Positions 17,471-40,235 of a stretch of DNA of 64,000 nt are shown in pieces. The notes under the pieces were generated by a model that saw nothing but the letters and a program-made list of their open reading frames with translations, was not told the DNA's origin and searched no databases. The stretch lies in the NCBI GenBank assembly GCA_963737155.1, contig CAVTRN010000002.1, positions 1,088,001-1,152,000 of the forward strand. The letters run 5' to 3'. Origin of the DNA: Nitrospirota bacterium (GTDB taxonomy: Bacteria > Nitrospirota > UBA9217). Numbering within the stretch: position 1 is the stretch's first letter; every line of letters starts with the position of its first letter. Position numbers and translations under genes: made by a program.

Positions 17471-18123
17471 GTGATATCATTCGAAAGATCAGAAAAGATT
17501 TTCATGCAGCACTTTCCATGGATCCTGCCGCTACGAACAGACTAGAGGTCGCTCTGACGTATGCAGGTGTTCACGCGCTTCTGCTCTACCGTTTCGCCCA
17601 CTGGCTGTGGACAAAACGCATTCCTTTTGTTCCGCGTGCTCTGTCACAGTTAGGACGGTTCCTGACGGGCATTGAAATTCATCCCGGTGCGACAATAGGC
17701 TCGGGGTTGTTCATTGACCATGGGATGGGAGTGGTAATCGGCGAGACAGCGGAGATCGGCGATAACGTCACGCTGTTTCAGGGGGTGACGCTTGGAGGAA
17801 CGGGCAAACAGCGGGGTAAACGACACCCGACGTTGGGGAGCCACGTTGTCGTGGGTGCCGGCGCAAAGGTGCTTGGCCCCATAAAAATTGGCGATTATGT
17901 CAAGATCGGTGCTAACTCGGTGGTGCTTCAGGATGTGCCGGATCATTCAACCGTGGTCGGCATTCCCGGGAAAATTGTTAGAATCAAGGACGAACGCGTT
18001 CCCGATGAAGCGCTTCTCGACCATATCCACATCCCCGATCCCATCGCGGACCGGTTCATCGATCTTCAGGTGCAGATCGATTCACTGAAAAGAGACTTGG
18101 AGAATCTTCGACAAAAAAAATGA
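17467..18123 (+). CDS. cysE: Serine O-acetyltransferase
   Basis: [35 protein letters not shown]. Confidence 0.97.
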
Positions 18124-18165
18124 TTGCAAAAATCCTGATAGGTGATGAGTCAGGCTTAAACATCG

Positions 18166-18585
18166 TCAATCCTCTATGATTTTATAACTGTGCTTGATTG
18201 TTCCCGCCTTCGCTAGTGTTGCCCCGACTGAGCAGTACTTATCGAGGGACAAGGCAATAGCTCTTTCAACTGCCTCCTTTTCAACACCCTTACCCCTCAC
18301 GACATACTCGATATGAACTGATTTGTACACTTGCGGAGGGTTTTCGGCCTTTTCTCCCTGTATATTGATTTCAAGACCTGTGACGGGCTGACGTTTTTTC
18401 CGAAGAATTGATATAACGTCCATACCCGAGCAACCGCCGAATCCGACGAGCAGCAGTTCCATGGGCCGGAATCCCGCATTGTGACCACCGGCTGTATCAT
18501 CGGCGTCCATGTTCAGGGTATGACCAGACGTTGCATTGCCTGTAAACAGCATATCATGCATGAGAGTTACTTTTGCTTCAACCAT
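18166..18585 (-). CDS. OsmC/YhfA family protein
   Basis: RPMELLLVGFGGCSGMD and KYCSV two-Cys motifs. Confidence 0.92.
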   Translation of the reverse strand: MVEAKVTLMHDMLFTGNATSGHTLNMDADDTAGGHNAGFRPMELLLVGFGGCSGMDVISILRKKRQPVTGLEINIQGEKAENPPQVYKSVHIEYVVRGKGVEKEAVERAIALSLDKYCSVGATLAKAGTIKHSYKIIED

Positions 18586-19442
18586 GTTTTCTGACTCCAT
18601 TCCTGTAATGAAATAAAAAGCGGTCTAAAAATTTAATCATCGTACCAGAAAGTCTTTGTGGCTGTCAATGGCCATTCCTAAAAACATAAAAATTTATCTC
18701 CCGCAACGATGACGGCAGCTGTTATATCCTGCACAAAACCATCCAAAGCTCGGACTGATCCGCGATAAATAAGCTGCCGCACCTAGGCCCGACGTGCTGA
18801 TTGCAGGTATTCAGATCCAGTGCGCAAATGCCTGTCTCGCCGGCCGACAACGATGACAGCGACAGCGGGGTCGGCAGGCAGCTTCATAAGCGTTGGTCTG
18901 TTGCGTTAAGGCAGGACCAATCTCAGTGACCTTTTTGAGGTTGCCAAGCCTTTTTTTCAGCGAATGTGGGAAGTCGCCCTCGTGGCGCGTCTAGATCATT
19001 TTTCTGGTTATGACTGAATACGCGAAAATACAGAGCGACAACACCCGAAGCAGTTTCCTCCTCTTAAATATTAAGTGTCCCGATTGGCATTTGCGGAACC
19101 TGCGGCAGTTTAATTGCTTTCCGTCCGTTTCTGATCGGTTCAACACTTATACCTTGTTGCTTTGAAATATGTTTAATTTAATAATGATATTATGATATAT
19201 ATACTAATATTTTATAACAAAAAATAAGCAGCGTCTGGTCGTATTTTTAATTACATTCGTTTTCTTTGGGGAAAATAGACAATAACTAAATAACTTTAGT
19301 ATTATTTAAAAAAATCGGCATATTAAGCGTTTCTCTACAGAAATAATGGTGAAGACGCCATAATTCAAGGACTCACCTCGTTATCAGAATATATAAGATT
19401 ATGATTAATAAATGGATTAATTTTTAAAGATCACATTGTCTG

Positions 19443-19457
19443 TGGCACTTAAATTGC
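19443..19457 (+). promoter_or_regulatory. sigma54 -24/-12 promoter upstream of dsrA
   Basis: TGGCAC-TTAAA-TTGC, preceded by ~300 bp AT-rich DNA. Confidence 0.65.
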
Positions 19458-19585
19458 GGGAAAATAATTTGATTTCATTGCTTATCCATAAAAGGCATGT
19501 AACTATTTGTAATAATTTAGTTGTTAAATGAATATTCGCAACCGTGATAATTATATGCGTTTATAGCAGAATTAATTTTTTTTAT

Positions 19586-19614
19586 TTGACTAAAACAGAA
19601 AGTACACTTACAAT
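19586..19614 (+). promoter_or_regulatory. sigma70-type promoter of the dsr operon
   Basis: TTGACT-N17-TACAAT with T-rich UP element. Confidence 0.7.
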
Positions 19615-19856
19615 CGCATTTCCTGACGTTGCTAAAGAAGTGATGTTTCATCGATAATTATTTACCTGCCCACCTCAGTTCACTAATAAAACCGTTAGCA
19701 GAAAGGGGGATCATTCACCATAATTCTGATAATTTCGCAGTCTGTCATTTGCGAATGGTTGCGAACGCCATAGATCAGAACCTCCATTTTCGCAAATACT
19801 TTTGAGTTCACCGAATGAATAATGTACTGATATAAATCTATAAGGAGGATTTCCTA

Positions 19857-21035
19857 ATGAGCAAAGATGGTAAGACACCAATGCTAGACGACCTGGAAAA
19901 AGGCGCATGGCCGAGTTTCGTAAAAGAGATCAAAACAGCCGCAAAGAGAAGCAACACGGCTCAAGATCTTCTCGGCATCCTGGAGAGATCTTATAGGGAC
20001 AAAGTCACCCACTGGAAGCACGGAGGGATTGTGGGCGTACTTGGTTACGGCGGGGGCGTTATCGGACGTTACTGCGATCTTCCCGAAGAGTTCCCCGGTG
20101 TGGCCCATTTCCATACCGTTCGTGTAAACCCCCCGTCAGGTTTTTTCTATACCTCCAAGGCACTCAAAGAACTGTGCGATATCTGGGATAAATACGGCAG
20201 CGGCATGACGAACATGCACGGATCTACTGGTGATATGATTTGGCTTGGCACTCAAACCGACAAGCTCGAGCCAATCTTCGCCGAGATAACTGCAAAGGGA
20301 TGGGACCTCGGCGGTTCCGGTTCATGCCTTCGTACTCCGAGTTCCTGCGTGGGCATGGCACGCTGCGAGTTTTCGAACATCGATACTATGAACATCTGCC
20401 ACACCTTCACCCAGAAATTCCAGGATGAACTCCATCGTCCTGCATTCCCTTACAAATTCAAGATCAAGGTATCCGGCTGTGCCAATGACTGCACTGCGGC
20501 AGTGGCACGCGCCGACATGTCCATCATCGGCACCTGGCGCGACAACATCCGTATCGACGCGGCTGAGGTGAAGAATTATTCCAAGGACATGGACATCAAG
20601 ACGGAAGTAACCGATATGTGCCCGACCCACTGCATGAGCTGGGACGGCAGCAGTCTCAAGATTAACGACAAGGATTGCAACCGCTGCATGCATTGCATAA
20701 ACCGCATGCCGAAAGCATTGCGTCCTGGCAAAGAGAAGGGCGCGACCATCATGTTGGGCGGAAAGGCCCCAATCGTGACGGGCGCTCTTATGAGCTGGGT
20801 TCTTGTTCCCTTCATGAAGCTTGAGGCACCCTATGATAACCTGGAAGACCTTATCCGCAAGCTGTGGGAATGGTGGGATGAGCATGGAAAGAATCGTGAA
20901 CGTATCGGCGAACTCGTCGACCGTATGGGCATGAGATCCATGCTTGAAGCCACCGGCATCCCGCCGGTCCCGCAGATGGTAAAGGCACCGAGGACCAACC
21001 CCTATGTGTTCTGGGCAGAGGGTGAAGTGCAGTAG
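19857..21035 (+). CDS. dsrA: Dissimilatory sulfite reductase alpha subunit
   Basis: HWKHGGIVGV.GYGGGVIGRY, CVGMARC, HRPAFPYKFK, GCANDC, RERIGE. Confidence 0.99.
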   Translation: MSKDGKTPMLDDLEKGAWPSFVKEIKTAAKRSNTAQDLLGILERSYRDKVTHWKHGGIVGVLGYGGGVIGRYCDLPEEFPGVAHFHTVRVNPPSGFFYTSKALKELCDIWDKYGSGMTNMHGSTGDMIWLGTQTDKLEPIFAEITAKGWDLGGSGSCLRTPSSCVGMARCEFSNIDTMNICHTFTQKFQDELHRPAFPYKFKIKVSGCANDCTAAVARADMSIIGTWRDNIRIDAAEVKNYSKDMDIKTEVTDMCPTHCMSWDGSSLKINDKDCNRCMHCINRMPKALRPGKEKGATIMLGGKAPIVTGALMSWVLVPFMKLEAPYDNLEDLIRKLWEWWDEHGKNRERIGELVDRMGMRSMLEATGIPPVPQMVKAPRTNPYVFWAEGEVQ

Positions 21036-21076
21036 TCATACACTGATTCGAATAATATCAAGGAGGGAAACCTATA

Positions 21077-22150
21077 ATGGCTGACAAACCGAAAAGAATA
21101 ACAGATCTTGGTGCACCCGACTACCATAAATTTCTGCCTCCCGTAATCACAAAAAATTATGGAAAGTGGAAGTACCATGAATATATCAACAAAGGTACGA
21201 TGAAGCATGTGTCCGAAACCGGCGACGAGCTGTATACTGTCCGCATCGCAACGTCCCGTCTTGTAAGCACCGACTTCATCCGTGAGATGTGTGATCTCGC
21301 TGAAAAATTCAGCGGCGGGCACCTCCGCTGGACGACCCGCCATAACGTCGAATTTTTCCCGGCAAAGGAGCAGGTTGACGCTCTTCAGGTAGAACTCAAG
21401 AAACGCGGCCACCTTGTCGGTGGTATCGGCTACGGCATCAGCAATGTGGTACATACTCAGGGATGGATCCATTGCCACACCCCTGCCACGGACGCTTCGG
21501 GTGTTGTGAAGGCGGTCATGGACGAACTTCATGAATACTTTACCACGAAGAGTCTTCCGGCACGCGTCAGAATCGCCTTGGCCTGCTGCCTGAATATGTG
21601 CGGCGCAGTCCACTGCTCTGACATTGCCATACTCGGGATTCACCGCAAACCCCCGAAGGTAAACGAGGCTACGCTCGGAAACCAGTGCGAAATTCCGACG
21701 ACTATTGCATCGTGCCCCACGGGCGCCATCAGCCCGAACCCGGCAACGAAATCAGTGAAAATCAAGGCCGAGCGCTGTATGTATTGCGGCAACTGCTATA
21801 CCATGTGCCCATCACTTCCGATCGCCGATGGGACTGGTGACGGCATTTCCATCTATGTCGGTGGCAAGGTGTCGAATGCACGCGGGCCAGCCCGCATGTC
21901 CAAGCTTGTTATCCCGTTTCTTCCGAACAATCCGCCACGCTGGCCCGAAACGGTCAAGGCGGTCAAGCATCTTGTCGAGGTCTATGCTCAGAATGCTAAA
22001 AAACATGAACGGATGGGCGAATGGATCGAGCGCATCGGCTGGGAGCGGTTTTTCAAACTGACCGGCCTGGCATTTACGTATCAGCACATTGATGACTTCA
22101 CCTTTGCCCGTGATACATTCAGAATGACCCCCACATTCAAGTGGGAATAA
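21077..22150 (+). CDS. dsrB: Dissimilatory sulfite reductase beta subunit
   Basis: [48 protein letters not shown]. Confidence 0.99.
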
Positions 22151-22173
22151 GCCTTATCGTCCGGACTCCATGT

Positions 22174-22204
22174 CGGCCCCGGTATTCATCCGGGGCCGGT
22201 TTTT
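22174..22204 (+). terminator. Terminator-like hairpin between dsrB and dsrD
   Basis: CGGCCCCGG-tattcat-CCGGGGCCG then GTTTTT. Confidence 0.6.
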
Positions 22205-22240
22205 CTGATGCTGTGAACAACATAACCGGAGGGGGAAACT

Positions 22241-22477
22241 ATGGACGCCGCAGAACTGCAGAAAAAAGTTTATGAACTGGTAGAAAAGAACATGGGGAAA
22301 AAGAAGATGAAAGCCGGCGACATCACTAAGGCCATGGAAGCCGAAGGCGCAAGCAGGGATGAAGTCAAGGCAGCCATTCGTGAGCTTGTTGACGGCGGCA
22401 GGCTGGTGTATTCGTATTTCGGCGGAAGTTTCATAGAAATTCCTCATACGGAAGGCTCGGCCAACCCACAATCATAA
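22241..22477 (+). CDS. dsrD: DsrD winged-helix protein
   Basis: 78 aa directly after dsrB; VKAAIRELVDGGRLVYSYFGGSF fits the DsrD C-terminal pattern. Confidence 0.85.
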   Translation: MDAAELQKKVYELVEKNMGKKKMKAGDITKAMEAEGASRDEVKAAIRELVDGGRLVYSYFGGSFIEIPHTEGSANPQS

Positions 22478-23895
22478 TGCAGAATATTCCGAGGCTGGTG
22501 CTTTCAGCCACCCGGGGAGGGCTCGGCAAGACAACGCTCTCAATCGGGATTGTCGCTGCTTGGAGAAAAGCCGGCAGACAGGTTGCGGTTTTTAAAAAAG
22601 GGCCTGATTTCATCGATGCGGGTTGGCTGGGCGTTGCAGCCGGAAAACCCTGCTACAATCTTGATCTTTTCATGATGGGGCAGGAGTGCATCAAAAAGTC
22701 ATTCCAGGAACATACAAAGGGTTCCGATGCCGCCATCATTGAAGGCAACAGGGGACTCTTTGATGGTGTTGATGAATCAGGGACTTACAGTACGGCACGG
22801 CTAGCCGGTTTGTTAAAAGCTCCGGTGGCGCTTATTGTCGACTGTACAAAAGCTACGAGTACCGTCGCAGCAACGGTATTAGGATGCAGACAGTATGATC
22901 CATCGGTCAATCTGGCGGGGGTCATCCTCAATAATGTATCGTCAACGCGTCACGAGAGTGTAATCAGAAAGGCTATCGCACAAAGCAGTGATCTCCCTGT
23001 AGTTGGTGCAGTCCCTCGGCAACGGGGGGATGCTTTTCCGGAACGGCACATGGGATTGACGCCGTTTCACGAACATCCTGAAATGCAGCAGGCAATATCT
23101 TCGTCAACGTCCCTTGTGGAAAGCTATCTTGATCTTGATGCGTTGTGGTCAATTGCCTGTGCGACGCCGGAGATCGAGTGTGCGCCGAGCGCATCAGCCG
23201 ATGACCCTGTCACGACACGAGGTGATCGGGTCGTGATTGGAGTGATCAGGGATCGAGCGTTTCAGTTTTATTACCCTGATAACCTGGAGGCACTGGAGAG
23301 CCAGGGGGCCACGCTCAGAGAAATAAACGCGCTTCACGACAGGGCACTGCCCGGTGATATCGATGCGCTCTATATTGGCGGCGGTTTTCCCGAAACTCAG
23401 GCCGCGGAGCTGGCGGGAAATGAAAGTTTTTGCGCATCAGTGCGGAATGCGGTGGAAACCGGCTTGCCTGTTTACGCTGAGTGTGGCGGACTCATTTATC
23501 TTGGTAGGAGTCTTATCGTCGGCAGTGAACGCTTTCCTATGACCGCAGTGCTGCCGGTTGATTTTGTGCTTGAAAAAAGTCCGCAGGCGCATGGTTATAC
23601 GATCCTGAAAACAAGCGACTCAAGCACGTTCCTTGAAAAAGGCATTGGCATTCGTGGTCATGAGTTCCACTATTCCAGGATTTACCATATTGACGGAAAT
23701 CCGTTAATGGCGTATCATGTTGCGAGGGGTTCCGGTATAAATGGTATGGGGGATGGCATCATCTATAAAAACGTATTAGCTTCCTATACTCATATCCATT
23801 CCTTGGCTACACCGCAATGGGCACCTGCCATGATACGCATTGCCCGTAAACGCCGCAATGCTCTAGTCGAACTAAGAGAACAGGGGATCTCGTGA
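22477..23895 (+). CDS. dsrN: Siroheme amidase (CbiA/CobB-like)
   Basis: GGLGKTT, KKGPDFID, EGNRGLFDG, PERHMGL, AECGG, HEFHYS; dsr context. Confidence 0.92.
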   Translation: MQNIPRLVLSATRGGLGKTTLSIGIVAAWRKAGRQVAVFKKGPDFIDAGWLGVAAGKPCYNLDLFMMGQECIKKSFQEHTKGSDAAIIEGNRGLFDGVDESGTYSTARLAGLLKAPVALIVDCTKATSTVAATVLGCRQYDPSVNLAGVILNNVSSTRHESVIRKAIAQSSDLPVVGAVPRQRGDAFPERHMGLTPFHEHPEMQQAISSSTSLVESYLDLDALWSIACATPEIECAPSASADDPVTTRGDRVVIGVIRDRAFQFYYPDNLEALESQGATLREINALHDRALPGDIDALYIGGGFPETQAAELAGNESFCASVRNAVETGLPVYAECGGLIYLGRSLIVGSERFPMTAVLPVDFVLEKSPQAHGYTILKTSDSSTFLEKGIGIRGHEFHYSRIYHIDGNPLMAYHVARGSGINGMGDGIIYKNVLASYTHIHSLATPQWAPAMIRIARKRRNALVELREQGIS

Positions 23896-24251
23896 ATCCA
23901 GGGACAAGGGGGAGTATTGAGCCAACCTGCCCTTTTTGCAGTAGTAAACTTGAACCTCCCAAAACCATGGTTCTCAATGTCATGGAAAGCGTTGAGGGGG
24001 GAACATGCAAGACCTGTGGCGCGTTCTACATCGCCGATCCGACGGGCAAGAACCTCGGAGAGGTGATGATGCAGGCGCTCGGGGTGGTGGCGGAAACGTT
24101 GTCAAAAGACATGGCTGACATGGTTCTCGGAGAGGATTACGAAGACGCGGTTTTGAATTATGATATCCGGACACATCGTTCCACAGGGATCAGCAGAGGT
24201 TTTAATGGCCAGGGACGGCTTTATATACTAAATGTAAAACGCAAATTATAA
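23892..24251 (+). CDS. Hypothetical protein with CxxC...CxxC (Zn-ribbon-like) in dsr operon
   Basis: CPFC and CKTC; overlaps dsrN stop by 4 nt. Confidence 0.8.
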   Translation: MNPGTRGSIEPTCPFCSSKLEPPKTMVLNVMESVEGGTCKTCGAFYIADPTGKNLGEVMMQALGVVAETLSKDMADMVLGEDYEDAVLNYDIRTHRSTGISRGFNGQGRLYILNVKRKL

Positions 24252-24364
24252 TGGCGGGCATTAAGGTTTGTTTTGAGCGGACCACGGGTGATGCAGGAAC
24301 CGGGAATTACAGTTGAGGGAGCTAATGAGGCGCCCGAACACAATTAACGAAAGGGGACAAAAAG

Positions 24365-24700
24365 ATGGGAACAATTTCGGTAGCGGGTAAAACGATCGAA
24401 GTGGATGAGGACGGCTTCCTGGCTAATCTGGACGACTGGAGTATGGATGTGGCCAAATACTTTGCGGAGGTTGAGGGAATCGAGATGTCCGACCAGCACT
24501 GGGAAGTAGTGAATTTCCTCCGTGACTACTACAAGCAGTATCAGATCGCGCCCATGATCAAGATTCTGGTGAAGGAGATCGGCAAGAAACTTGGGCCCGA
24601 AAAAGGCAATACCAAGTACCTTTATGAGCTTTATCCGGGCGGTCCGGCAAAGCAGGCTTGCAAAATCGCGGGTCTTCCGAAACCGACTGGCTGCGTATAG
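24365..24700 (+). CDS. dsrC: DsrC sulfur carrier
   Basis: DEDGFL..W, GPAKQACKIAGLPKPTGCV with both C-terminal Cys (CX10C). Confidence 0.98.
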   Translation: MGTISVAGKTIEVDEDGFLANLDDWSMDVAKYFAEVEGIEMSDQHWEVVNFLRDYYKQYQIAPMIKILVKEIGKKLGPEKGNTKYLYELYPGGPAKQACKIAGLPKPTGCV

Positions 24701-24863
24701 TAACTAGAAATTTCCCGAATTAATTCGGTTGTGAGCGCCTCTAACTTTTAAAGTGGCGGCCTGACCTGAGGAAAAAGTATCGGCCGACTTTACCTGATAT
24801 GCGGCAAGTGTCAGGGTGTGCGACAACGGTCGGGTACACAAAATTCAGGAGGAAGTGACCGTT

Positions 24864-25049
24864 ATGTACATGGTTGCAGTTGACAAAAAAAAGTGCGACG
24901 GTTGTGGCACCTGCGTAAATGTTTGTCCTCAATCCGTTTTCAAAATGGAGGGAGACAAGTCTGAACCGGTGAACATGTCCGAATGCATTAATTGCCTTAC
25001 CTGCGTTGAGAATTGCCCGCAGCAGGCGATTACGGTTACTGAGATATAA
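24864..25049 (+). CDS. 2x[4Fe-4S] ferredoxin (copy A)
   Basis: CDGCGTCVNVCP and CINCLTCVENCP; SD AGGAGG. Confidence 0.95.
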   Translation: MYMVAVDKKKCDGCGTCVNVCPQSVFKMEGDKSEPVNMSECINCLTCVENCPQQAITVTEI

Positions 25050-25073
25050 TGCGGTAACATTGAGTCATACCGA

Positions 25074-25108
25074 AAGGGGATAGTTGAAAAATTATCCCCT
25101 GTTTTTTT
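25074..25108 (+). terminator. Intrinsic terminator after ferredoxin A
   Basis: AGGGGATAGT-tgaaa-AATTATCCCCT then T7. Confidence 0.7.
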
Positions 25109-25135
25109 ATATCGAACTTGCTCTCGGGAGGTGAG

Positions 25136-25438
25136 ATGATGAAGCTAGCGGTTTTTTTAAGCGATTGGAGAAGGACGGAGAACAGTTTTGAGAGAATGAA
25201 AGCCGACAAGCTCGGCGTTATTCTCGTCGGCAACGGAATCTATCATGCTGTGGTGAAGGAAGGCGGGAAGGAATCCCCCGTGCTTTCGAAGGCGGGCGCG
25301 AACTTCTACGTTCTGTCTGACGATCTGGAAACGAGAGGATATACGGCGGCGAATGTGAATTCAAAGGTGAAAATCATCGGATATGGCGATATCGTCGATC
25401 TGATCATGAATGATTACGAAAAAACGGCGTGGTTGTAG
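25136..25438 (+). CDS. dsrH: DsrH/TusB-like protein
   Basis: ILVGNGIYHA, FYVLSDDLETRG, IGYGDIVDLI...W pattern of TusB/DsrH. Confidence 0.8.
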   Translation: MMKLAVFLSDWRRTENSFERMKADKLGVILVGNGIYHAVVKEGGKESPVLSKAGANFYVLSDDLETRGYTAANVNSKVKIIGYGDIVDLIMNDYEKTAWL

Positions 25439-25555
25439 AAATCCGAAAGCGGGGCGCGCTATGGCGGAGGGGGGATTGCAAATGGACGTTATCCTATCCA
25501 CTGCAGGACAGAGGCACCCTGTATCAAATACGACAATTTTATAAGGAGGAGAACT

Positions 25556-25915
25556 ATGGGAGAACTGACAATTGGATCGTTCCCTTCCCTGGTCGGCTCG
25601 ATGTCACTGGATTTTACCTTTAAACTTGCCGAGGCGGCAATCGGCAAAGGGCACAAGGTAAATTTGTGGCTGTCCGGCAACGCGGTGATGATGGCCAAAA
25701 AGGGACAGAAGGCTTTCAAAGATTATTCGCACATGGAAAAACGCATGAAGGAACTTATCGCCAAGGGAATGGAGATTACCGTGTGTGAGGCCTGCGCGGA
25801 AGCGCGAGGTTACCATAAGGAAGACACTCCCGAGGGCATGAAACGCGCCAGTATGGACTGGTATTTGGCGAAGACCGTGAAGACCGACAAGCTGCTTCAT
25901 ATCGGAGGTGAGTAA
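25556..25915 (+). CDS. dsrE: DsrE/TusD-like sulfurtransferase
   Basis: KLAEAAIGKGHKV.LWLSGNAV, VCEACAEARG. Confidence 0.8.
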   Translation: MGELTIGSFPSLVGSMSLDFTFKLAEAAIGKGHKVNLWLSGNAVMMAKKGQKAFKDYSHMEKRMKELIAKGMEITVCEACAEARGYHKEDTPEGMKRASMDWYLAKTVKTDKLLHIGGE

Positions 25916-26329
25916 ATGGGCGCCGTAAAAATATTGTTTGTAGTGCAAAGACCGCCGTACAAGAGCGAGAACCCCCGCCTTGCGCTCACCCATGCTATTT
26001 CAAGCCAGACGGCAGAGATTTATATGGATGACGGGGATTCCGTGGTGCCTACCCTTGTGTTCGTTGGCGACGGAGTGTTGAACGCCGTGAAGAACCAGCA
26101 GGCCATGAAGCTCTACGGTGTGACGAGCACCGAAAGTCATATCAAGAATAGCTTGCTTGTTGACGTGCCCGTCTGGGTATGCAAGGAAGATATGGAACAT
26201 TTCGGCCTGAAGGAAGACCAGATGATCACCGATGCTGAAGAGCTCGGCGGGGAGCTGAAGACGAAATTCGTCAGTTTCGCAGAGATTCAAAAAGAGATGG
26301 AATCGGTCAAACATCTTCTCTTCTTCTAA
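25916..26329 (+). CDS. dsrF: DsrF/TusC-like protein
   Basis: ILFVVQRPPY, FVGDGVL..VKNQ, VWVCKEDMEHFGL. Confidence 0.75.
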   Translation: MGAVKILFVVQRPPYKSENPRLALTHAISSQTAEIYMDDGDSVVPTLVFVGDGVLNAVKNQQAMKLYGVTSTESHIKNSLLVDVPVWVCKEDMEHFGLKEDQMITDAEELGGELKTKFVSFAEIQKEMESVKHLLFF

Positions 26330-26389
26330 TGTTACGTACCCTGCAGCAATTGCTGCAGGGATGTTTGCTATCAGTTCATCAAAGAAAAA

Positions 26390-26905
26390 ATGAAGCTTAA
26401 AGAGCATTTAACGGAAAAGAAAACCGACATTCTGCGAAAATGGTTTGATGCCGTTGTGGAGACCTATCCGAACGAGACGTCCACCTTTTTAAAAAAGCAG
26501 AAAGCCCAGTTTACGAATCCCGTCGGTTATACGCTTTCGGAAGGGCTCGAACATCTTTTCGACGCACTGCTGCGGGGAATGCTTCCTGACACCGTATCAC
26601 GGTTTCTCGACAGCATTATAAGAATCCGCGCCATCCAGGCATTCACCCCTTCCGAGGCCGTTTTATTCATTTTCCAGCTCAAGAAGCTGGTCCGTCAGGA
26701 ACTCGGGACTGAGATCCTGCACCAGCAGGGGATTGTCGAGGAACTGGCGGCCTTTGATTCAGCGACCGATGATCTGGCTCTCTATGCGTTCGATCTTTAC
26801 ATGAAATGCAGGGAAAAAATTTACGATATCAAGGCAAACGAAGCTAGAAACATGACCTTCAGGCTATTGCAGCAGGCGCGTCTTATCGTTGACAACCAGG
26901 ACTGA
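26390..26905 (+). CDS. dsrT: DsrT (RsbRD N-terminal domain protein)
   Basis: W..V.ETYP, FTNPVG, IRIRAIQAFTPSEAV, AFDLYMKCREKIY; directly before dsrM. Confidence 0.92.
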   Translation: MKLKEHLTEKKTDILRKWFDAVVETYPNETSTFLKKQKAQFTNPVGYTLSEGLEHLFDALLRGMLPDTVSRFLDSIIRIRAIQAFTPSEAVLFIFQLKKLVRQELGTEILHQQGIVEELAAFDSATDDLALYAFDLYMKCREKIYDIKANEARNMTFRLLQQARLIVDNQD

Positions 26906-26958
26906 GGCCGGTGAAGACCGTTCCGAGCTGTTAACCTAAAACGAAAAGAGGTAACGAA

Positions 26959-27951
26959 ATGAAAGCCTTATCTGCATTCATCGTAGTACTGTTCCTTGTA
27001 CTAGTTGCCTATATGGGGGTGGAGACGGCAAATGCGCACTTTCTCTTTGGCGTTGTTTTCCCCTACGCGGCTGTTGCCCTCTTCATCGGGGGCATGATCT
27101 TCCGAATCCTCAAATGGGGCAGCGCGCCGGTCCCTTTCCGCATTCCGACGACTTGCGGGCAGCAGAAGTCGTTCTCATGGATCAAACACAGTAAGCTTGA
27201 AAATCCTTCGGGAACAATCGGGGTGATGGGCAGGATGGCTCTCGAAGTCCTGTTTTTCCGTTCGCTTTTCAGAAACCTCAAAACACAAATGCAGGACGGT
27301 GGAAAACTGACGTATGGAGAGGCCAAATGGCTCTGGGCCGCCGGTCTGGCATTTCACTGGTCTTTTCTCATCGTACTTATCAGGCATTTACGGTTCTTTA
27401 CCCAGCAGGTACCGGCGGCAGTGCAGATGGTCGCGGAGCTCGACAGCTTCCTCCAGATTGGAGTGCCGCTTCTATACATGACCGATGCCGTACTCCTTGC
27501 TGCCGTAACCTATCTCTTTATTAGAAGAATCAGCTTGCCCCAGGTTCGTTATATCTCCCTCATGAATGATTATTTTCCTCTGTTCCTGATCTTTGGGATT
27601 GCGCTTTCCGGTGTGCTCATGCGGTACTTTTTTAAAACAAACATCGTGAGCGTAAAGATGCTTGCCATGAGCCTCGTCAGCTTCAAACCGGAAGTTCCCC
27701 AGGGGATAGACGCGATCTTCTACATTCACCTGTTTCTCTTGTGCACGTTGTTTGCTTATTTCCCGTTTAGCAAACTTGTGCATATGGCCGGCGTATTCAT
27801 GAGCCCCACCCGTGTGCTGGCTAATACCAGCCGTGTGAAGCGGCATATTAACCCCTGGAATTACCCCGTCCATGTTCATACCTATGAAGAATACGAAAAC
27901 GACTTCAGGGCAAAGATGAAAGATGCCGGCCTGCCGGTAGAAAAGGAGTAA
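26959..27951 (+). CDS. dsrM: DsrM membrane b-type cytochrome
   Basis: PVPFRIPTTCGQ, EVLFFRSLFRN, FHW..HLR, YFPFSKLVHMAG. Confidence 0.97.
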   Translation: MKALSAFIVVLFLVLVAYMGVETANAHFLFGVVFPYAAVALFIGGMIFRILKWGSAPVPFRIPTTCGQQKSFSWIKHSKLENPSGTIGVMGRMALEVLFFRSLFRNLKTQMQDGGKLTYGEAKWLWAAGLAFHWSFLIVLIRHLRFFTQQVPAAVQMVAELDSFLQIGVPLLYMTDAVLLAAVTYLFIRRISLPQVRYISLMNDYFPLFLIFGIALSGVLMRYFFKTNIVSVKMLAMSLVSFKPEVPQGIDAIFYIHLFLLCTLFAYFPFSKLVHMAGVFMSPTRVLANTSRVKRHINPWNYPVHVHTYEEYENDFRAKMKDAGLPVEKE

Positions 27952-27953
27952 TC

Positions 27954-29573
27954 ATGGCGAAACTTCCGAAACCAGAAGAATTAGCGAAAGTTGATTACAC
28001 GCTGCCGAAGACGGGCTGGATGGAAACGCCTGTCGTGTTTAAAGAGGGCATGTTCTGCCATGGGTCGAAGCCGAAAAGCCTCGAGATTGTCGGGTTCCCG
28101 AACCCGCGTGATTGGCGGCCAGCGGATGCGGACTGGAAGCTGCCTGAGAACTGGAAGGAAATCCTGATTAAGGGTATTGCGGACCGACTGAAAAAATACC
28201 GGTCCTTCCAGCTCTTCATGGACATCTGTGTACGCTGTGGCGCCTGTGCTGACAAGTGTCACTTCTTCATCGGTACCGGAGACCCGAAGAACATGCCGGT
28301 TCTCAGGGCCGAGCTTATCCGCTCGGTTTACCGTCAGGAATTCACGCTTGCCGGAAAAATTCTTGGTAAGATGGCAGGAGGGCGAGAACTGACGCTCGAC
28401 GTACTGAAGGAATGGTGGTACTACTTCTATCAGTGTACGGAATGTCGCCGCTGCTCGGTATTCTGTCCCTACGGCATCGACCAGGCCGAGATTACAATCA
28501 TTGGCCGGGAACTCCTCAATGAACTCGGCCTCAACATCGAGTGGATCGCCGGTCCCGTATCGAACTGCTATATGAAAGGTAATCATCTCGGTCTCGAACC
28601 GCACACGATTATCGGAAACCTGGAATATATGCTGGACGACATTGAGACTGTGACCGGGAAAAAGATCAAACCTACATTTAACAGAAAAGGCGCGGAGATT
28701 CTCTTTGTTACTCCGTCCGGCGATCTTTTCGCGGACCCGGGTACATACACTTGTATGGGTTACCTAATGCTGTTTGAGGAGCTCGGCCTTGATTATACTT
28801 GGAGCACCTACGCGTCAGAAGGCGGAAATTTCGGCTTCTTTACCACGAACGAGATGGCGAAGCGGCTCAATTCCAAAATATATGCCGAAGCCAAGCGTCT
28901 CGGCGTGAAGTGGATCTTAGGAGGAGAGTGCGGTCACATGTGGCGGGTGCTCTCACAATATATGGACACCTGGAACGGTCCGGCTGATTTTCTCGAAGTG
29001 CCGAAATCGCCGATCACTGGCACGGTCTTCGAACAGGCGAAGTCAATGAAGATGGTCCATGTTGCCGAGTTCACCGCCGACCTGATACGAAACAACAAGC
29101 TTAAACTCGATCCGAAGCGGAATGACCACCTCAAGGTTACGTGGCACGATTCCTGTAATACCGCGCGCGGTATGGGCCTGCTTGAAGAACCACGATACGT
29201 GCTCAAAAATGTGGTGAATCACTTCTACGAAATGCCGGAGGATACGATCCGCGAAAAGACTTTTTGTTGCGGCAGCGGCACAGGACTGAATGCGTCGGAA
29301 GACATGGATCTCCGCATGAAGGGCGGGTTCCCCCGCGCAAACGCCGTCAAGTTCGTGCAGGAGCATCACGGAGTTAACATGCTTGCCAATGTGTGCGCCA
29401 TTGACCGAGCGACGCTCAAGGCCCTCATGGATTACTGGGTGCCGAGCGTGGGGGTCTGTGGACTCCACGAATTGGTGGCGAACGCTCTCGTTATGACGGG
29501 CGAAAAGGAGAGGACGACCGACCTGCGCGGCGAACCCCTTCCATTAGCTGAAGTGAAGGAGGGAAAAGCCTAA
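27954..29573 (+). CDS. dsrK: DsrK Fe-S subunit (HdrD-like)
   Basis: CVRCGACADKC, CTECRRCSVFCP, GECGH, HDSCN, FCCGSG. Confidence 0.98.
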   Translation: MAKLPKPEELAKVDYTLPKTGWMETPVVFKEGMFCHGSKPKSLEIVGFPNPRDWRPADADWKLPENWKEILIKGIADRLKKYRSFQLFMDICVRCGACADKCHFFIGTGDPKNMPVLRAELIRSVYRQEFTLAGKILGKMAGGRELTLDVLKEWWYYFYQCTECRRCSVFCPYGIDQAEITIIGRELLNELGLNIEWIAGPVSNCYMKGNHLGLEPHTIIGNLEYMLDDIETVTGKKIKPTFNRKGAEILFVTPSGDLFADPGTYTCMGYLMLFEELGLDYTWSTYASEGGNFGFFTTNEMAKRLNSKIYAEAKRLGVKWILGGECGHMWRVLSQYMDTWNGPADFLEVPKSPITGTVFEQAKSMKMVHVAEFTADLIRNNKLKLDPKRNDHLKVTWHDSCNTARGMGLLEEPRYVLKNVVNHFYEMPEDTIREKTFCCGSGTGLNASEDMDLRMKGGFPRANAVKFVQEHHGVNMLANVCAIDRATLKALMDYWVPSVGVCGLHELVANALVMTGEKERTTDLRGEPLPLAEVKEGKA

Positions 29574-30001
29574 TGAAACTCTATGACGGAGGTAAAATAC
29601 TCATCGGGCTGGCGGTTTTCCTGGCGTTTGCCCTGTTCCCGTTCTACTACAATATAGGTAAAGTGAACGCCAAACCTGATCCGAAAACGGATACACCGGA
29701 AATCCAGGAGTGGGTAAAAGTTAACGGTAAAAAGGAATGCGTCGAATCGAAGGAGTTCATGCAAAGAGAGCACATGCAGCTTCTGAACAACTGGAGAGAC
29801 GCGGTTGTCCGCAATATGTACCGTGTCTATGTCAGCTCTTCAAGTGGCAAACAGTTCAATATGAGCCTCCAGAATGGGTGTTTGCATTGTCATTCGAACA
29901 AGAAACAGTTCTGCGACCAATGCCACAACTACCTGGCGGTCAATCCGTACTGCTTTGATTGTCATATCCAGCCGATGGAAAAGGAGGAGAACAAATCATG
30001 A
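29573..30001 (+). CDS. dsrJ: DsrJ triheme cytochrome c
   Basis: CVE...M..EHMQLL..WRD plus CLHCH, CDQCH, CFDCH. Confidence 0.96.
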   Translation: MKLYDGGKILIGLAVFLAFALFPFYYNIGKVNAKPDPKTDTPEIQEWVKVNGKKECVESKEFMQREHMQLLNNWRDAVVRNMYRVYVSSSSGKQFNMSLQNGCLHCHSNKKQFCDQCHNYLAVNPYCFDCHIQPMEKEENKS

Positions 30002-30828
30002 GCCTGGACAGGAGACAATTTTTGAAGATTGCCGGTATCTCCTCCATTCTGGGGTTCGGCGCCTCGGTCGCGTCTGCAACGCATACGATCTGGGAAAAAG
30101 GTCTAGAGCCACCGCAAATTGAACCGAACAAAGATGCTTTGATTGCAACCCGGTGGGCTATGGTTGTTGATATGAGCAAGTTCAAGACCGATGAGGACAT
30201 CAAGAAGGTTACCAGCGCATGCCATCAGACACATAATGTCCCAGATTTCCGCAATCCTGACGGAACTGTGGACGAAAAATTCGAAATTAAGTGGATTTGG
30301 AAAGAACCTTACGACCGCACTTTCCCGGGCGCGGAAAACAAATTCATGAATGAACGTATAAAGGAAATGCCCTTTATCGTGCTCTGCAACCACTGCGACA
30401 ATCCGCCGTGCGTGCGGGTCTGCCCGACCAAGGCGACATTCAAGTTAACGAACGGAATCACCATGCAGGATGAGCACCGTTGTATCGGGTGCCGTTTCTG
30501 CATGGCCGCCTGCCCTTATGGATCGCGTAGCTTTAACTGGACCGATCCGCGCAAAGCGCTCAATCCGGCAACGGAAAACAAGGCATATCCCACAAGGACC
30601 AAGGGCGTAGTGGAGAAATGCACCTTCTGCTCTGAGCGACTTCAGTTTGGTAAAATTCCGGCCTGTGTAGAGGCTGCTCCTCAAGGCGCCATGTTTTTCG
30701 GGGATATAGAAGACCCCAATTCCGATGTCAGAAAAATCGTAACGACCCAACTTACTACCCGGCGCAAGCCGGATCTGGGGACCGGACCGGCAGTCTATTA
30801 TCTGATAGGAGGGAGCGACCATGCTTGA
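29998..30828 (+). CDS. dsrO: DsrO periplasmic Fe-S protein
   Basis: Tat signal DRRQFLK; CNHCDNPPCVRVCP, CIGCRFCMAACP, KCTFC. Confidence 0.96.
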   Translation: MSLDRRQFLKIAGISSILGFGASVASATHTIWEKGLEPPQIEPNKDALIATRWAMVVDMSKFKTDEDIKKVTSACHQTHNVPDFRNPDGTVDEKFEIKWIWKEPYDRTFPGAENKFMNERIKEMPFIVLCNHCDNPPCVRVCPTKATFKLTNGITMQDEHRCIGCRFCMAACPYGSRSFNWTDPRKALNPATENKAYPTRTKGVVEKCTFCSERLQFGKIPACVEAAPQGAMFFGDIEDPNSDVRKIVTTQLTTRRKPDLGTGPAVYYLIGGSDHA

Positions 30829-31993
30829 AAAGGCATTTGAGGGAGGAAAATCATACTGGGCATGGCTGATGTTTCTCGGCGCCCTTGCCCTGATCGGCGT
30901 TTACTATTATATTCAGCAGTTCCAATATGGGTTGGGTATCACCGGGATGAGCAGGGATGTCTCCTGGGGTCTGTATATAGGCCAGTTCACGTTCCTGGTC
31001 GGCGTCGCAGCTTCGGCTGTCATGCTGGTGATTCCCTACTATCTTCACGACTTTAAAAAGTTCGGGAAGATCGTGATTCTGGGAGAGTTTCTGGCCATCT
31101 CCGCGGTCATCATGTGCATTCTTTTCATCTTCGTGGATATGGGCCAGCCCATGAGAATCATGAACGTGGTATTGCATCCAACACCGAATTCGGTCATGTT
31201 CTGGGATTCCGTGGTGCTTTGCGGATATCTGTGCATCAATCTGCTGGTCGGATGGGTGACGCTCAGCGCGGACCGCAAAGGCATTGCACCGCCGAAGTGG
31301 ATCAAGTTCTTTATTTACCTTTCGATCCCCTGGGCGGTCAGTATCCATACTGTGACGGCGTTCCTTTATTCCGGTCTACCGGCGCGCGAGTTCTGGTTGA
31401 GTGCCGTCATGGCGGCGCGGTTCTTGGCATCGGCGTTCGCCGCCGGTCCGGCGCTGCTTATTGTTCTGGCGCTTATCGTGAGGAAGGTGTCCACATTTGA
31501 TCCAGGCAAAGAGCCTATCCAGGCGGTCGGCAAGATCGTAACGTATGCCATGTTCGCCAACGTATTTCTTCTGGGACTTGAGTTCTTTACGGCGTTCTAC
31601 AGCGGAATTCCCGGCCATTCGCTGCCCTTCAAGTACCTGTATGTCGGTCTTCAAGGCCATTCCGAGCTGGTTCCGCTCATGTGGACGTCGACGATTCTTG
31701 CAGTCCTGTCGCTGGTCTTGCTGGTATTCCCGCAACTGCGGAAGAAAGAAGGCCTGCTGGCATTTGCTTGTGTTTCACTTTTTATTTCACTCTGGATCGA
31801 TAAGGGTTTCGGCCTGATCATCGGCGGTTTTGAGCCGAATCCTTTCGAATATGTGCGTCCTTACTGGCCGACGATGCCGGAAGCGTTGATAACCCTCGGC
31901 GTCTGGGCCATCGGCATCCTTGTCCTGTCCATGCTGTATAAAATCGCTGTTTCCGTGCGAGAACGCATGGCTGGAATCGAGATTGAACATTAA
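30821..31993 (+). CDS. dsrP: DsrP membrane subunit (NrfD/PsrC family)
   Basis: GMSRDVSWGLYI.QFTFLVGVAAS, SIPWAVSIHTVTAF; multiple TM helices. Confidence 0.96.
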   Translation: MLEKAFEGGKSYWAWLMFLGALALIGVYYYIQQFQYGLGITGMSRDVSWGLYIGQFTFLVGVAASAVMLVIPYYLHDFKKFGKIVILGEFLAISAVIMCILFIFVDMGQPMRIMNVVLHPTPNSVMFWDSVVLCGYLCINLLVGWVTLSADRKGIAPPKWIKFFIYLSIPWAVSIHTVTAFLYSGLPAREFWLSAVMAARFLASAFAAGPALLIVLALIVRKVSTFDPGKEPIQAVGKIVTYAMFANVFLLGLEFFTAFYSGIPGHSLPFKYLYVGLQGHSELVPLMWTSTILAVLSLVLLVFPQLRKKEGLLAFACVSLFISLWIDKGFGLIIGGFEPNPFEYVRPYWPTMPEALITLGVWAIGILVLSMLYKIAVSVRERMAGIEIEH

Positions 31994-32016
31994 AAAAAGG
32001 TTGCCTATCATAGTGC

Positions 32017-32047
32017 AAGGGCCCCCCTTCGGGAGGGCCTTTTTTTT
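32017..32047 (+). terminator. Intrinsic terminator after dsrP
   Basis: AGGGCCCCCC-TTCG-GGAGGGCCT then T-run. Confidence 0.85.
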
Positions 32048-32058
32048 ACATTTCTTTC

Positions 32059-32087
32059 TTGATTTTATTCTTTCCGACGGGTAATAT
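32059..32087 (+). promoter_or_regulatory. sigma70-type promoter of ferredoxin B
   Basis: TTGATT-N17-TAATAT. Confidence 0.55.
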
Positions 32088-32134
32088 TACTTGCTTTTTG
32101 GAATTTTACTTTACTGAAGGAGGGTACAGACCCC

Positions 32135-32320
32135 ATGTACATGGTAACAATCGACAAAAACAAGTGCGATGGAGACGGCACCTGTGTGAACGTGTGTCCG
32201 CAATCGGTGTTCAAGGTTGAGGGTGGCAAAGCCGACGCGGTGAACATGTCGGAGTGCATCAATTGTCAGACCTGCGTGGAAAACTGCCCACAGCAGGCAA
32301 TTATCGTTAACGAAATATAA
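32135..32320 (+). CDS. Ferredoxin (copy B) with CxxDxxC first cluster motif
   Basis: CDGDGTCVNVCP and CINCQTCVENCP; SD AGGAGG. Confidence 0.95.
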   Translation: MYMVTIDKNKCDGDGTCVNVCPQSVFKVEGGKADAVNMSECINCQTCVENCPQQAIIVNEI

Positions 32321-37965: not shown

Positions 37966-38048
37966 GTTATCGTTAGGTTAGCAGTCGATAGGAGCGAAGA
38001 AGTCCTGTTTCTCTCCGACCGCTCGGCAGCCGGATGGGGATGAAGAGA

Positions 38049-38525
38049 ATGAAGTTGTCCACAAAGGGGAAATATGGAGTGCGTGCTGTCTTTGAGATCG
38101 CCCGTCATTACGGCAAGGGGCCGATCACCATCAAGGAGATCGCCGACCGCCAGGGTATCTCCTTTTCCTATCTAGAGCAGATCCTGCACAAACTTGGGAA
38201 AGCGGGCGTGATCGAGAGTGTTCGCGGTCCTGCAGGCGGCTACCTCCTTGCTCGCAAACCTGCAGAGCTTACTATCGGTGACATCGTCCGGACGCTGGAG
38301 GGTCCCATTGCATTGTCTCATTGCTTGGAGCCTGGAGAATCAGGCGACTGCAATCAGGCCGATGACTGCGTGGCGCGGATGGTATGGGTTAAAGTGGGTG
38401 CCAAGATAGAAGAGGCCCTCGACAGCATCAGCTTCAACGATCTGCTGCAGAAGGAGATCCGGAAAACGTCCGTCCTTCTGAGACCCAGAAAGAAGACAGC
38501 AATGATAGGGAAGGGGGCATGTTAA
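38049..38525 (+). CDS. iscR: Rrf2 family regulator, IscR-like
   Basis: [24 protein letters not shown], three C-terminal Cys; heads iscS-iscU. Confidence 0.85.
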
Positions 38526-38526
38526 C

Positions 38527-39711: not shown

Positions 39712-39721
39712 GGAGGAAGCC

Positions 39722-40150
39722 ATGGAACAGTATAGTTCAAAAGTGATGGACCATTTCGCCCATCCGCACAACGTGGGTGAGATTGAGAATGCCGACGGGG
39801 TGGGTACCGTAGGGAATCCCGTATGTGGAGACGTGATGCGTCTCTATATCAAAGTTGAAGGGAACGTTATTGCTGATGCGAAGTTCAAGACCTTTGGCTG
39901 CGGCGCTGCTATCGCGACCAGCAGCATGGTCACCGATCTGGTCAAGGGAAAGACAATTGATGAGGCATTGAAGATTTCAAATGCTGCGGTGGCTGAAGCG
40001 CTCGGAGGACTGCCGAGGGTGAAAATGCACTGTTCTGTACTGGCCGAAGAAGCACTGAAGTCCGCTCTTGATGATTATTACAAGAAAAAAGGAATTCCTT
40101 CGCCCGTGCGTATGCCCGCAGAGTCAGGGCATGAGCATGACATGGAGTAA
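39722..40150 (+). CDS. iscU: Fe-S cluster scaffold IscU/NifU
   Basis: GNPVCGDVM, KTFGCGAAIA, KMHCS. Confidence 0.97.
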   Translation: MEQYSSKVMDHFAHPHNVGEIENADGVGTVGNPVCGDVMRLYIKVEGNVIADAKFKTFGCGAAIATSSMVTDLVKGKTIDEALKISNAAVAEALGGLPRVKMHCSVLAEEALKSALDDYYKKKGIPSPVRMPAESGHEHDME

Positions 40151-40235
40151 TAATATTGGAGTATGGATTTTTTGGCTTGATAATATACAGGATCGCAGAT
40201 GAGTCTGAGACCCTGAAGGGGAAATGGTTTTGTTT

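Follow-up and report, generated by a model that had tools for sequence, protein, structure and literature searches.

Two DsrEFH sulfur relays have been studied biochemically. In Allochromatium vinosum, whose DsrEFH is counted as type I, sulfur passes from Cys78 of DsrE to Cys111 of DsrC and not in the reverse direction, and Cys20 of DsrH, dispensable in vitro, is needed in vivo, where it may serve the upstream donor (PMC3397948). The second relay is that of cable bacteria, where TusA exchanges sulfur with Cys67 of DsrE, which hands it to DsrC; in the 2026 survey reporting it, the tusA-yedE 'YTD' arrangement was renamed DsrEFH type II, which occurs in cable bacteria and in many sulfate reducers, and transfer from TusA through DsrEFH type II to DsrC was shown for organisms with reductive DsrAB (PMC13293266). 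Within the Nitrospirota, the occurrence of dsrD and dsrEFH in the same genome has already been noted (PMC11406059), the magnetotactic metagenome-assembled genome (MAG) LBB01 was described with dsrABCHEF, aprAB and sat and read in terms of sulfur oxidation or disproportionation (PMC9376291), and most Thermodesulfovibrionia with reductive dsrAB were said to 'possess dsrFH, but no dsrE' (PMC11033732). Here we describe a locus where such genes stand together, in a stretch of 64,000 nucleotides (hereafter the window; C2:1088001-1152000) of a two-contig, 4.84-Mb Nitrospirota genome rated 100% complete. Positions 19857-32320 of the window, with housekeeping genes on both sides, hold a dsr operon that belongs to a mesophilic member of the Nitrospirota, of the Thermodesulfovibrionia type, and within it lie three small genes, H, E and F (the trio), which are the subject of this work. 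The listing of open reading frames (ORFs) together with Pfam and NCBIfam scans gave 17 genes, all on the + strand, in the order dsrA-B-D(like)-N-orf119-C-fdx-H-E-F-T-M-K-J-O-P-fdx, confirming the arrangement that an earlier note on this DNA had read from the bare sequence.

Compared subunit by subunit, the sequences identify the trio as the DsrEFH-like module that the earlier note had supposed, in a divergent form whose members are one-to-one remote homologues of DsrH/TusB, DsrE/TusD and DsrF/TusC. The H gene (25139..25438, + strand, 99 residues, with an alternative ATG at 25136) matches PF04077 (DsrH) with 40.8 bits, the E gene (25556..25915, +, 119 residues) matches PF02635 (DsrE) with 51.2 bits, and the F gene (25916..26329, +, 137 residues), whose start abuts the stop of E, matches the same PF02635 family with 41.8 bits. 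With the curated NCBIfam models, H scores 47.1-47.4 bits on TIGR03011 (TusB/DsrH; cut-off 49.2), E 24.8 bits on TIGR03012 (TusD/DsrE; cut-off 89.25) and F 34.4 bits on TIGR03010 (TusC/DsrF; cut-off 94.15). The same models are matched by 32/32 orthologues of H, 25/32 of E (at E<=0.01) and 32/32 of F, and the canonical DsrE proteins of other Nitrospirota reach 98-124 bits on TIGR03012. The trio also falls under the cut-offs of the Tus equivalogs NF001237, NF001238 and NF010035. Among PDB sequences, the best match of H is the DsrH of A. vinosum (2HY5_C, E=1.6e-4), and E finds YchN (7.8e-4) and then DsrE (0.12). The F protein alone and its profile gave no meaningful match to PDB sequences, and F was identified by fold search only: its AlphaFold2 model, with a mean predicted local distance difference test (pLDDT) of 90.7, has DsrF (2HY5_B) as rank-1 match with E=1.5e-8 and template-modelling (TM) scores of 0.77/0.80. 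The model of E (pLDDT 85.1) has YchN (1JX7) at Foldseek rank 1 and its highest query-normalised TM score (TMq), 0.81, to DsrE (2HY5_A). A search of 1.84 billion proteins with the F profile yielded no more than 32 representatives (E<=0.001), many of them fragments and none a canonical DsrF or TusC, so that the F lineage is isolated in sequence from both.

The active-site cysteine of DsrE is kept in E. In the window and 64 orthologous loci (65 sequences), Cys77 and Cys80 of the motif CEACxxARG are invariant in E (65/65), and Cys77 aligns with the active-site Cys78 of A. vinosum DsrE; Cys89 of F is likewise invariant across the 65 sequences. Moreover, structure modelling predicts a heterotrimer of H, E and F with a 1:1:1 interface: F placed against E plus H gave an interaction prediction score from aligned errors (ipSAE) of 0.73 (runs of 0.81, 0.73 and 0.70), the best of three controls reaching 0.29, with at least 86% of contacts in common between runs and a partner pLDDT of at least 89. 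A mark of 0.73 was reached by 58/80 solved complexes versus 2/110 mismatched pairs, and since the solved look-alikes 2HY5 and 2D1P exist, the score shows likeness and may reflect memory.

A scan of related loci, using one genome per species, returned 72 loci. In 64 of them the H, E and F ORFs are all complete and stand in this order; eight loci fell under the filter for 80% coverage and intact ORFs owing to contig ends or frameshifts. The records with close relatives of E are nearly all titled as Nitrospirota, Nitrospirae or Thermodesulfovibrionales MAGs. Two sets can be told apart, the window's own group (E at least 80% identical, 42 loci with all three genes), which keeps dsrABDN-orf119-C-fdx-HEF-T-MKJOP-fdx as far as the DNA reaches, and a distant group (E 55-63% identical). 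In 10 of the 23 distant loci the trio lies beside dsrC-T-MKJOP-fdx or its terminal fdx, twice following dsrC-T-MKJOP-fdx on the same strand (L057 and L060) and eight times tail to tail with that operon or with its terminal fdx. The earlier note had staked its proposal on conservation of the trio next to dsrC in relatives, and conserved it proved to be, beside dsrC or dsrTMKJOP. A further neighbour appears in the distant group, where an ORF of 81-83 residues starts within 400 bp after F in 20 of the 21 loci with enough DNA; all four of these ORFs tested are TusA (PF01206, 67-79 bits). No yedE stands beside the trio in the window's group (0/42), nor was one seen among 15 selected annotated ORFs from seven distant loci.

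The distribution of the trio follows that of dissimilatory sulfite reductase. For a census of the phylum we used 301 Nitrospirota genomes, G000 included, calling the trio by a profile of its E subunit (E<=1e-25); these genomes are related rather than independent samples, and the counts describe the sample with no statistical test attached. DsrA was found in 157/301 genomes and the E subunit in 118/301, and 113 of the 118 carriers also encode DsrA, so that 113/157 DsrA genomes carry the trio. Only five of the 144 DsrA-less genomes have it, three of the five being at most 85% complete, and it occurs in none of the 129 genomes of the DsrA-less families (numbering ours) f5, f7-f10, f14, f17, f19, f21, f29 and f30. 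Canonical DsrE, scoring above the cut-off of TIGR03012, was found in 15 genomes, all from families f2, f3 and f6, and none of the 15 has the trio. In the Thermodesulfovibrio-like family f16, DsrA is present in 11/11 genomes, the trio in 1/11 and the YTD-type DsrE discussed below in 0/11. What the earlier note saw as the DsrEFH of oxidisers placed in a reductive operon is better described as a separate and divergent lineage, given its H-E-F order and sub-cut-off scores, an H subunit devoid of cysteine, and the 0/15 overlap with canonical DsrE.

Some other arrangements of these genes were met during the census. In genus g27 of f1, the window's own family, the trio is found in 1/6 genomes, and at locus L122 of this genus (genome G090) a different and more basal dsrAB precedes dsrMK-like genes and dsrC; no DsrD-like gene was detected there. 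The Nitrospirota also have another mixed form, found in family f3, where a canonical-type dsrE..dsrH stands directly upstream of dsrA-dsrB-dsrD-like (loci L123 and L124 of genomes G035 and G062), the DsrA of this family being 63-64% identical to that of the window.

The window encodes dsrA for the alpha subunit (19857..21035, +, 392 residues; TIGR02064, 565 bits, cut-off 392.85) and dsrB for the beta subunit (21077..22150, +, 357 residues; TIGR02066, 484 bits, cut-off 341.5). The earlier note had left the choice between reductive and oxidative DsrAB to phylogeny, and in a paralogue-rooted tree of DsrA and DsrB, with 21 operons labelled by context, both halves place the window in the same clade of 14 members (support 0.994 for A and 0.479 for B). 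This clade comprises the other trio-bearing families and the Thermodesulfovibrio-like f16, whose DsrA is 82-87% identical to records titled Thermodesulfovibrio; families f2 and f6, which have canonical DsrE and lack DsrD, lie outside it, and their DsrA shares 47-48% identity with that of the window. By this phylogeny the window's DsrAB is of the reductive (Thermodesulfovibrio) clade, in agreement with a published tree that puts the DsrAB of Thermodesulfovibrionia in the reductive type (PMC11033732). The trio-less f16 and f28 are nested among carriers, which suggests that their lack of the trio reflects loss rather than repeated gain elsewhere. The gene following dsrB (22241..22477, +) encodes a small winged-helix protein of 78 residues that scores 17.9 bits on Pfam DsrD, cut-off 24.2. 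Its orthologues match the Pfam family in 11/21 cases at E<=0.01, their profile reaches only E=0.16 with PDB 1UCR, and the protein shares 52% identity with the Thermodesulfovibrio-like copy where the two align. The gene always lies directly after dsrB in related loci, and its identity as DsrD, weak by sequence, rests mainly on size and on this fixed place.

The same genome encodes a second DsrEFH-like system of the YTD kind. At C1:995173-997570 (locus L103), tusA (995173-995421) and a YedE/TsuA-like transporter gene are accompanied by three small ORFs (996769-997570) of 101, 92 and 56 residues, the first of which gives a weak DsrE match (19.8 bits) and has a cysteine cluster at residues 63-68. 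These proteins are not similar to the trio of the window: the E counterparts share 33% identity over 52 residues, and F and H give no significant alignment. YTD-type E homologues are present in 107/301 Nitrospirota genomes, and 94 of the 118 trio carriers have one. In distant relatives, the TusA encoded next to the trio shares 65% identity with its counterpart from the tusA-yedE locus of the window's genome and only 32% with the TusA of the window itself, which is linked to iscS and nifU (40236-40478), from which the trio and the YTD module appear to share one TusA orthologue.

Two further members of the DsrE family deserve mention as observations in their own right. A tusA-dsrE2 pair lies beside dnaA at C1:766645-767371 (L104), its DsrE2 scoring 209.2 bits on NF047629, cut-off 210. 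In many related genomes, a DsrE-family paralogue contains one in-frame TGA (e.g., G015:C36:3983-4273 and G024:C11:194594-194824) that may encode selenocysteine; the copy of the window's genome (C2:579112-579501) has no in-frame stop and carries a cysteine in a C-E-Q motif, and this genome also has TGA-containing molybdopterin and rhodanese-domain frames.

We favour, with a probability of about 0.6, a role of the trio as a relay from TusA through Cys77 of E to DsrC, which would give a sulfate reducer an oxidative branch. In this scheme, TusA charged with sulfane sulfur would persulfidate Cys77 of the E subunit, and the complex of E, F and H would then dock DsrC and hand the sulfur to its penultimate cysteine. 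The acceptor is encoded just upstream (dsrC, 24365..24700, +, 111 residues; PF04358 161 bits, TIGR03342 165 bits) and ends in ...C-x10-C-V, with both C-terminal cysteines present and spaced as in functional DsrC. DsrMK(JOP) would turn the loaded DsrC into its trisulfide, which DsrAB, running backwards, would oxidise to sulfite, and AprBA and Sat would make sulfate. Such a branch could serve the disproportionation of sulfur or thiosulfate, the reductive branch itself being the electron sink, or else could oxidise reduced sulfur with nitrate via NarG. Among the genes that the earlier note had listed for a genome search, sat, aprBA, qmoABC and narG are present outside the operon, the former as adk-sat-aprB-aprA-qmoA-qmoB-qmoC-(CBS)-membrane pyrophosphatase and NarG with 1520 bits (cut-off 1084); NrfA was not found in the genome search, and the eight rhodanese matches of the genome all lie outside the dsr cluster. 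We infer the sulfur transfer, its direction and its physiological role from homology to the two systems studied biochemically.

Several observations weigh against this relay. The three proteins pass the Pfam models, though all stay under the curated NCBIfam cut-offs, and the best match of E in both sequence and Foldseek searches is the uncharacterised YchN, not DsrE. H is free of cysteine in 65/65 orthologues, while Cys20 of A. vinosum DsrH is essential in vivo, and the upstream donor step may therefore differ. In the DNA examined, 12 of the 23 distant loci show no dsr gene; no tusA adjoins the trio in the window's group (0/42 loci); and at the threshold used, no YTD-type DsrE was seen in 24 of the 118 genomes with the trio. 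The operon retains the DsrD-like gene and DsrT, and the genome the full set for sulfate reduction. Finally, no entry enzyme for sulfide was recognised, in a search that was partial for sulfide:quinone oxidoreductase (SQR) and did not extend to Sox genes. For SQR, comparison with NCBIfam or PDB put a name to 11 of the 19 PF07992 matches, none of them SQR-like (the best candidate, L093, is NDH-2-like and L095 unrelated); of the rest one is qmoA, and six of 268-318 residues plus one 2663-residue frame were left unexamined, no dedicated SQR model being used.

The missing cysteine of H, the lack of a recognised entry enzyme for sulfide and the retention of the DsrD-like gene and DsrT leave real room for the trio to act in the reductive direction. 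It would then assist sulfate or sulfite respiration in mesophiles living at low sulfate, for example by taking up or shuttling the zero-valent sulfur of the DsrC persulfide or trisulfide or by feeding the sulfur of thiosulfate or polysulfide to DsrC for the formation of sulfide. The setting would suit it, an operon with DsrMKJOP as well as the DsrD-like gene and DsrT, DsrAB of the Thermodesulfovibrio clade, a complete sat-aprBA-qmoABC set and no SQR among the 11 matches named, and the related MAG Candidatus Sulfobium was reported to express the Dsr pathway under sulfate amendment (PMC10591310). We nevertheless regard this role as unlikely: in both studied DsrEFH types sulfur flows to DsrC and not back (PMC3397948, PMC13293266), Thermodesulfovibrio-like genomes mostly do without the trio (1/11), and its link to tusA together with its co-occurrence with tusA-yedE points to the delivery of imported sulfane sulfur.

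The earlier note had also asked whether ferredoxins, in place of DsrL, couple electrons to DsrAB, and the two ferredoxins of the cluster might indeed replace DsrL as redox partner and so make the system reversible. Its statement that the cluster has no dsrL stands and extends to the genome, rated 100% complete, where none was recognised. The three candidates, flavoproteins of the GltD/Fer4_20 type, are each explained by another context, one being GltA-like, one a GXGXG-fused glutamate synthase subunit beside a Glu_synthase gene and one MvhD-fused beside MetF/MetV. A ferredoxin gene is also a conserved neighbour of the trio: in the window's group it immediately precedes the trio, and in distant loci it either separates dsrP from the trio or lies tail to tail with the latter. 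The physiological electron donor of DsrAB in reducers has been stated to be unknown (PMC10591310). However, most DsrD-bearing Nitrospirota, cultured Thermodesulfovibrio included, were reported without DsrL in the same source, so that its absence is the ordinary state of reducers rather than a feature of this locus, and the ferredoxin encoded after dsrP could equally serve DsrMKJOP. Any such role for the two ferredoxins is one that we infer, and replacement of DsrL by them seems to us quite improbable.

A biosynthetic relay like TusBCD, supplying sulfur for tRNA 2-thiouridine or for cofactors to a DsrC/TusE-like acceptor and lying in the dsr operon by accident, has in its favour that the TusB, TusC and TusD models are the closest curated families and that the operon is followed, 6-8 kb further downstream, by an Rrf2-iscS-nifU-tusA cluster, but it is highly improbable, since a housekeeping relay should not track the distribution of Dsr as this trio does (113/118 carriers with DsrA, none in the 129 genomes of DsrA-less families), all scores are far under the Tus equivalog cut-offs, and the tusA adjacent to the trio in relatives is of the YTD type and not the one linked to iscS.

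Returning to the relay from TusA to DsrC, it can be embedded in a broader proposal, which we hold only tentatively and which may well fail in one or other of its parts. In that proposal the trio would be a third relay lineage, outside types I and II, limited to Dsr-encoding Nitrospirota of the Thermodesulfovibrionia type and dedicated to the loading of DsrC, with the YTD system acting upstream or in parallel and TusA shared by both; two relays plus DsrD would then form a direction switch for a reductive-type DsrAB, and Thermodesulfovibrio, nested among carriers in the DsrA tree, would have lost both modules on becoming a pure sulfate reducer.

The rest of the operon is of the expected composition, DsrA, B, M, K, J, O and P all exceeding the cut-offs of their NCBIfam equivalogs and DsrC and DsrN likewise scoring above curated thresholds. 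Downstream of the DsrD-like gene, dsrN (22477..23895, +) encodes a sirohaem a,c-diamide synthase, a CobB-type amidase of 472 residues (NF002204, 440 bits), and its stop is overlapped by four bases by orf119 (23892..24251, +), a conserved gene for 119 residues with an N-terminal CxxC...CxxC. No Pfam or NCBIfam family was matched by orf119; across families of the Nitrospirota the gene keeps its place between dsrN and dsrC, with family f26 having it on the opposite strand, and its look-alikes in the Atlas are unnamed clusters from Nitrospirota and Thermodesulfobacteriota only. After the trio, dsrT (26390..26905, +, 171 residues) takes its name from its position and an RsbRD_N domain (77.9 bits), and it always precedes dsrM in related loci. 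There follow, all on the + strand, dsrM (26959..27951; NF038037, 531 bits, cut-off 300), dsrK (27954..29573; NF045796, 730 bits, cut-off 400), dsrJ (29573..30001; NF038038, 166 bits, cut-off 100), dsrO (29998..30828; NF045797, 285 bits, cut-off 200) and dsrP (30821..31993; NF045798, 481 bits, cut-off 350). The start of dsrO is taken as the ATG preceding the twin-arginine motif, the ORF listing beginning at a TTG at 29959. The two 2x[4Fe-4S] ferredoxins, both matching Fer4 families and both of 61 residues, are fdx1 (24864..25049, +, counted from its ATG) and fdx2 (32135..32320, +). They are identical at 49/61 residues in a manual count, suggesting a recent duplication, and the first cluster motif of fdx2 reads CxxDxxC, with Asp where its second cysteine would stand, a pattern known from ferredoxins whose cluster can convert between [3Fe-4S] and [4Fe-4S].

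Further features lie in the surroundings. Upstream of dsrA, the region 18601-19856 is a gene-poor, A+T-rich stretch of 1.25 kb (the bin 18001-20000 has 41% G+C versus about 52% around) with several promoter-like sites, the best at 19586-19614. The cluster at 38034-40478, 6-8 kb downstream of the operon, encodes an Rrf2 regulator, an IscS-like cysteine desulfurase, NifU/IscU and TusA, the latter a protein of 80 residues (40236-40478) with a CPxP motif. A 6S RNA (Rfam RF00013, 97.6 bits) lies at 43951-44132 on the + strand, and Rfam and tRNA scans found nothing within the dsr operon itself.

As for expression, a consensus scan pointed to three + strand hairpins around the genes discussed. The first, after dsrB (22172..22200), has 11 pairs (9 G-C) with a T-run behind them and is a possible attenuator or terminator; the second, also of 11 pairs with a T-run behind them, separates fdx1 from the H gene (25075..25100); and the third, of 9 pairs (7 G-C), comes after the F gene (26339..26360). 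The same scan gave another hairpin after dsrP. In the region, 18 terminator-type sites were found versus 14.4 expected in shuffles, and 19 promoter sites versus the same shuffle expectation of 14.4; both counts are near expectation, and the hairpins are leads only. Contigs from four peat metatranscriptome runs of a single study, 90-95% like the window and covering small shares of the region, represent a relative. They cover dsrAB and dsrC-fdx1-H, and a single contig spans fdx1-H-E-F into the start of dsrT (24854-26460); the parts left uncovered (dsrN and most of dsrMKJOP) carry no meaning. The hairpin at 25075-25100 is read across by a contig of this relative, and a near-identical counterpart of the one after F lies in loose ends of its contigs, at 26338, in two of the four runs. 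Altogether this is a weak hint of expression in a relative, a single transcript being unprovable from such contigs and carry-over of DNA possible.

The marker value of these genes is what gives the locus a wider meaning. DsrEFH has long been used as a marker of sulfur oxidisers and DsrD as one of reducers, and the predicted metabolism of thousands of MAGs depends on both. About three quarters of the sampled Dsr-encoding Nitrospirota (113/157) have a DsrEFH-like module that falls under the thresholds of the standard models or is scored by them only in part, which explains statements of the kind 'dsrFH but no dsrE', and most of these 113 genomes hold a second, unrelated DsrEFH-like system as well. 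Should the trio load DsrC, widespread bacteria of soil, peat, aquifers and sediments would have to be scored as potentially bidirectional or disproportionating organisms rather than plain sulfate reducers. The locus lends itself to a direct test of which relay supplies a reductive-type DsrAB: its proteins are small and soluble, one cysteine is invariant, the TusA partner is named, and Thermodesulfovibrio provides a natural contrast.

The general idea is already in print (2022-2026) and is no longer as open as the earlier note framed it. The survey of 2026 shows a type II relay in organisms with reductive DsrAB (PMC13293266). In the literature searched we did not find the trio treated as a lineage apart from types I and II, nor its cysteine-less H, its linkage to tusA, its mutual exclusion with canonical DsrE or its coexistence with the YTD system. 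The survey itself seems not to have counted this lineage, since its type II hidden Markov models (HMMs) derive from BLAST hits to cable-bacterial proteins, bacterial type II is described as syntenic with tusA and yedE, and reductive dsrAB is reported in only 2.4% of type I genomes (PMC13293266).

Among described relatives, the dsrHEF of LBB01 and the dsrFH of Thermodesulfovibrionia are probably the same genes as the trio, judged by description and not by sequence; the published remarks are at the level of annotation and make no mention of a distinct lineage, a cysteine-less H, a linkage to tusA or a coexisting YTD system (PMC9376291, PMC11033732). The operon of Thermodesulfovibrio is close to that of the window in its DsrA (60% identical) and DsrB (58-59%), in the common DsrAB clade and in the DsrD-like gene after dsrB, and differs in that 10 of the 11 sampled genomes of the family are without the trio and all 11 without the YTD-type DsrE. 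With the TusBCD of Escherichia coli (2D1P) the trio shares the fold family and the three-subunit logic, and the Tus models are its nearest curated families, but its equivalog scores are far too low, its distribution tracks Dsr and not tRNA modification, and it sits in a dissimilatory operon.

The likeness to type I DsrEFH (A. vinosum, PDB 2HY5) extends to three paralogous DsrE-fold subunits in one-to-one remote homology, a conserved active-site cysteine in DsrE, a predicted trimer interface, a nearby dsrC and a link to TusA in relatives. In contrast to type I, the genes run H-E-F instead of E-F-H; H has no cysteine, whereas Cys20 of the A. vinosum protein is needed in vivo (PMC3397948); and the trio goes with a reductive-type DsrAB, a DsrD-like protein and DsrT, with no DsrL found, whereas type I goes with oxidative-type dsrAB and dsrL and lacks dsrD. 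Moreover, type I forms an alpha2-beta2-gamma2 complex that persulfidates DsrC, while for the trio a 1:1:1 interface is known as a prediction only. The comparison with type II was made with the YTD trio of the same genome and not with the HMMs of PMC13293266. Unlike that system, the trio of the window is recognisable by Pfam, is larger (99/119/137 versus 56/101/92 residues) and lies inside a dsr operon rather than beside yedE. The 'subtype 1' of type II is 57% Nitrospirota (PMC13293266) and may or may not include the lineage of the trio. What the trio shares with type II as described in that source is a DsrEFH-like relay in the company of reductive DsrAB, a conserved cysteine in E, an association with TusA and the same proposed function, the loading of DsrC for the oxidative direction.

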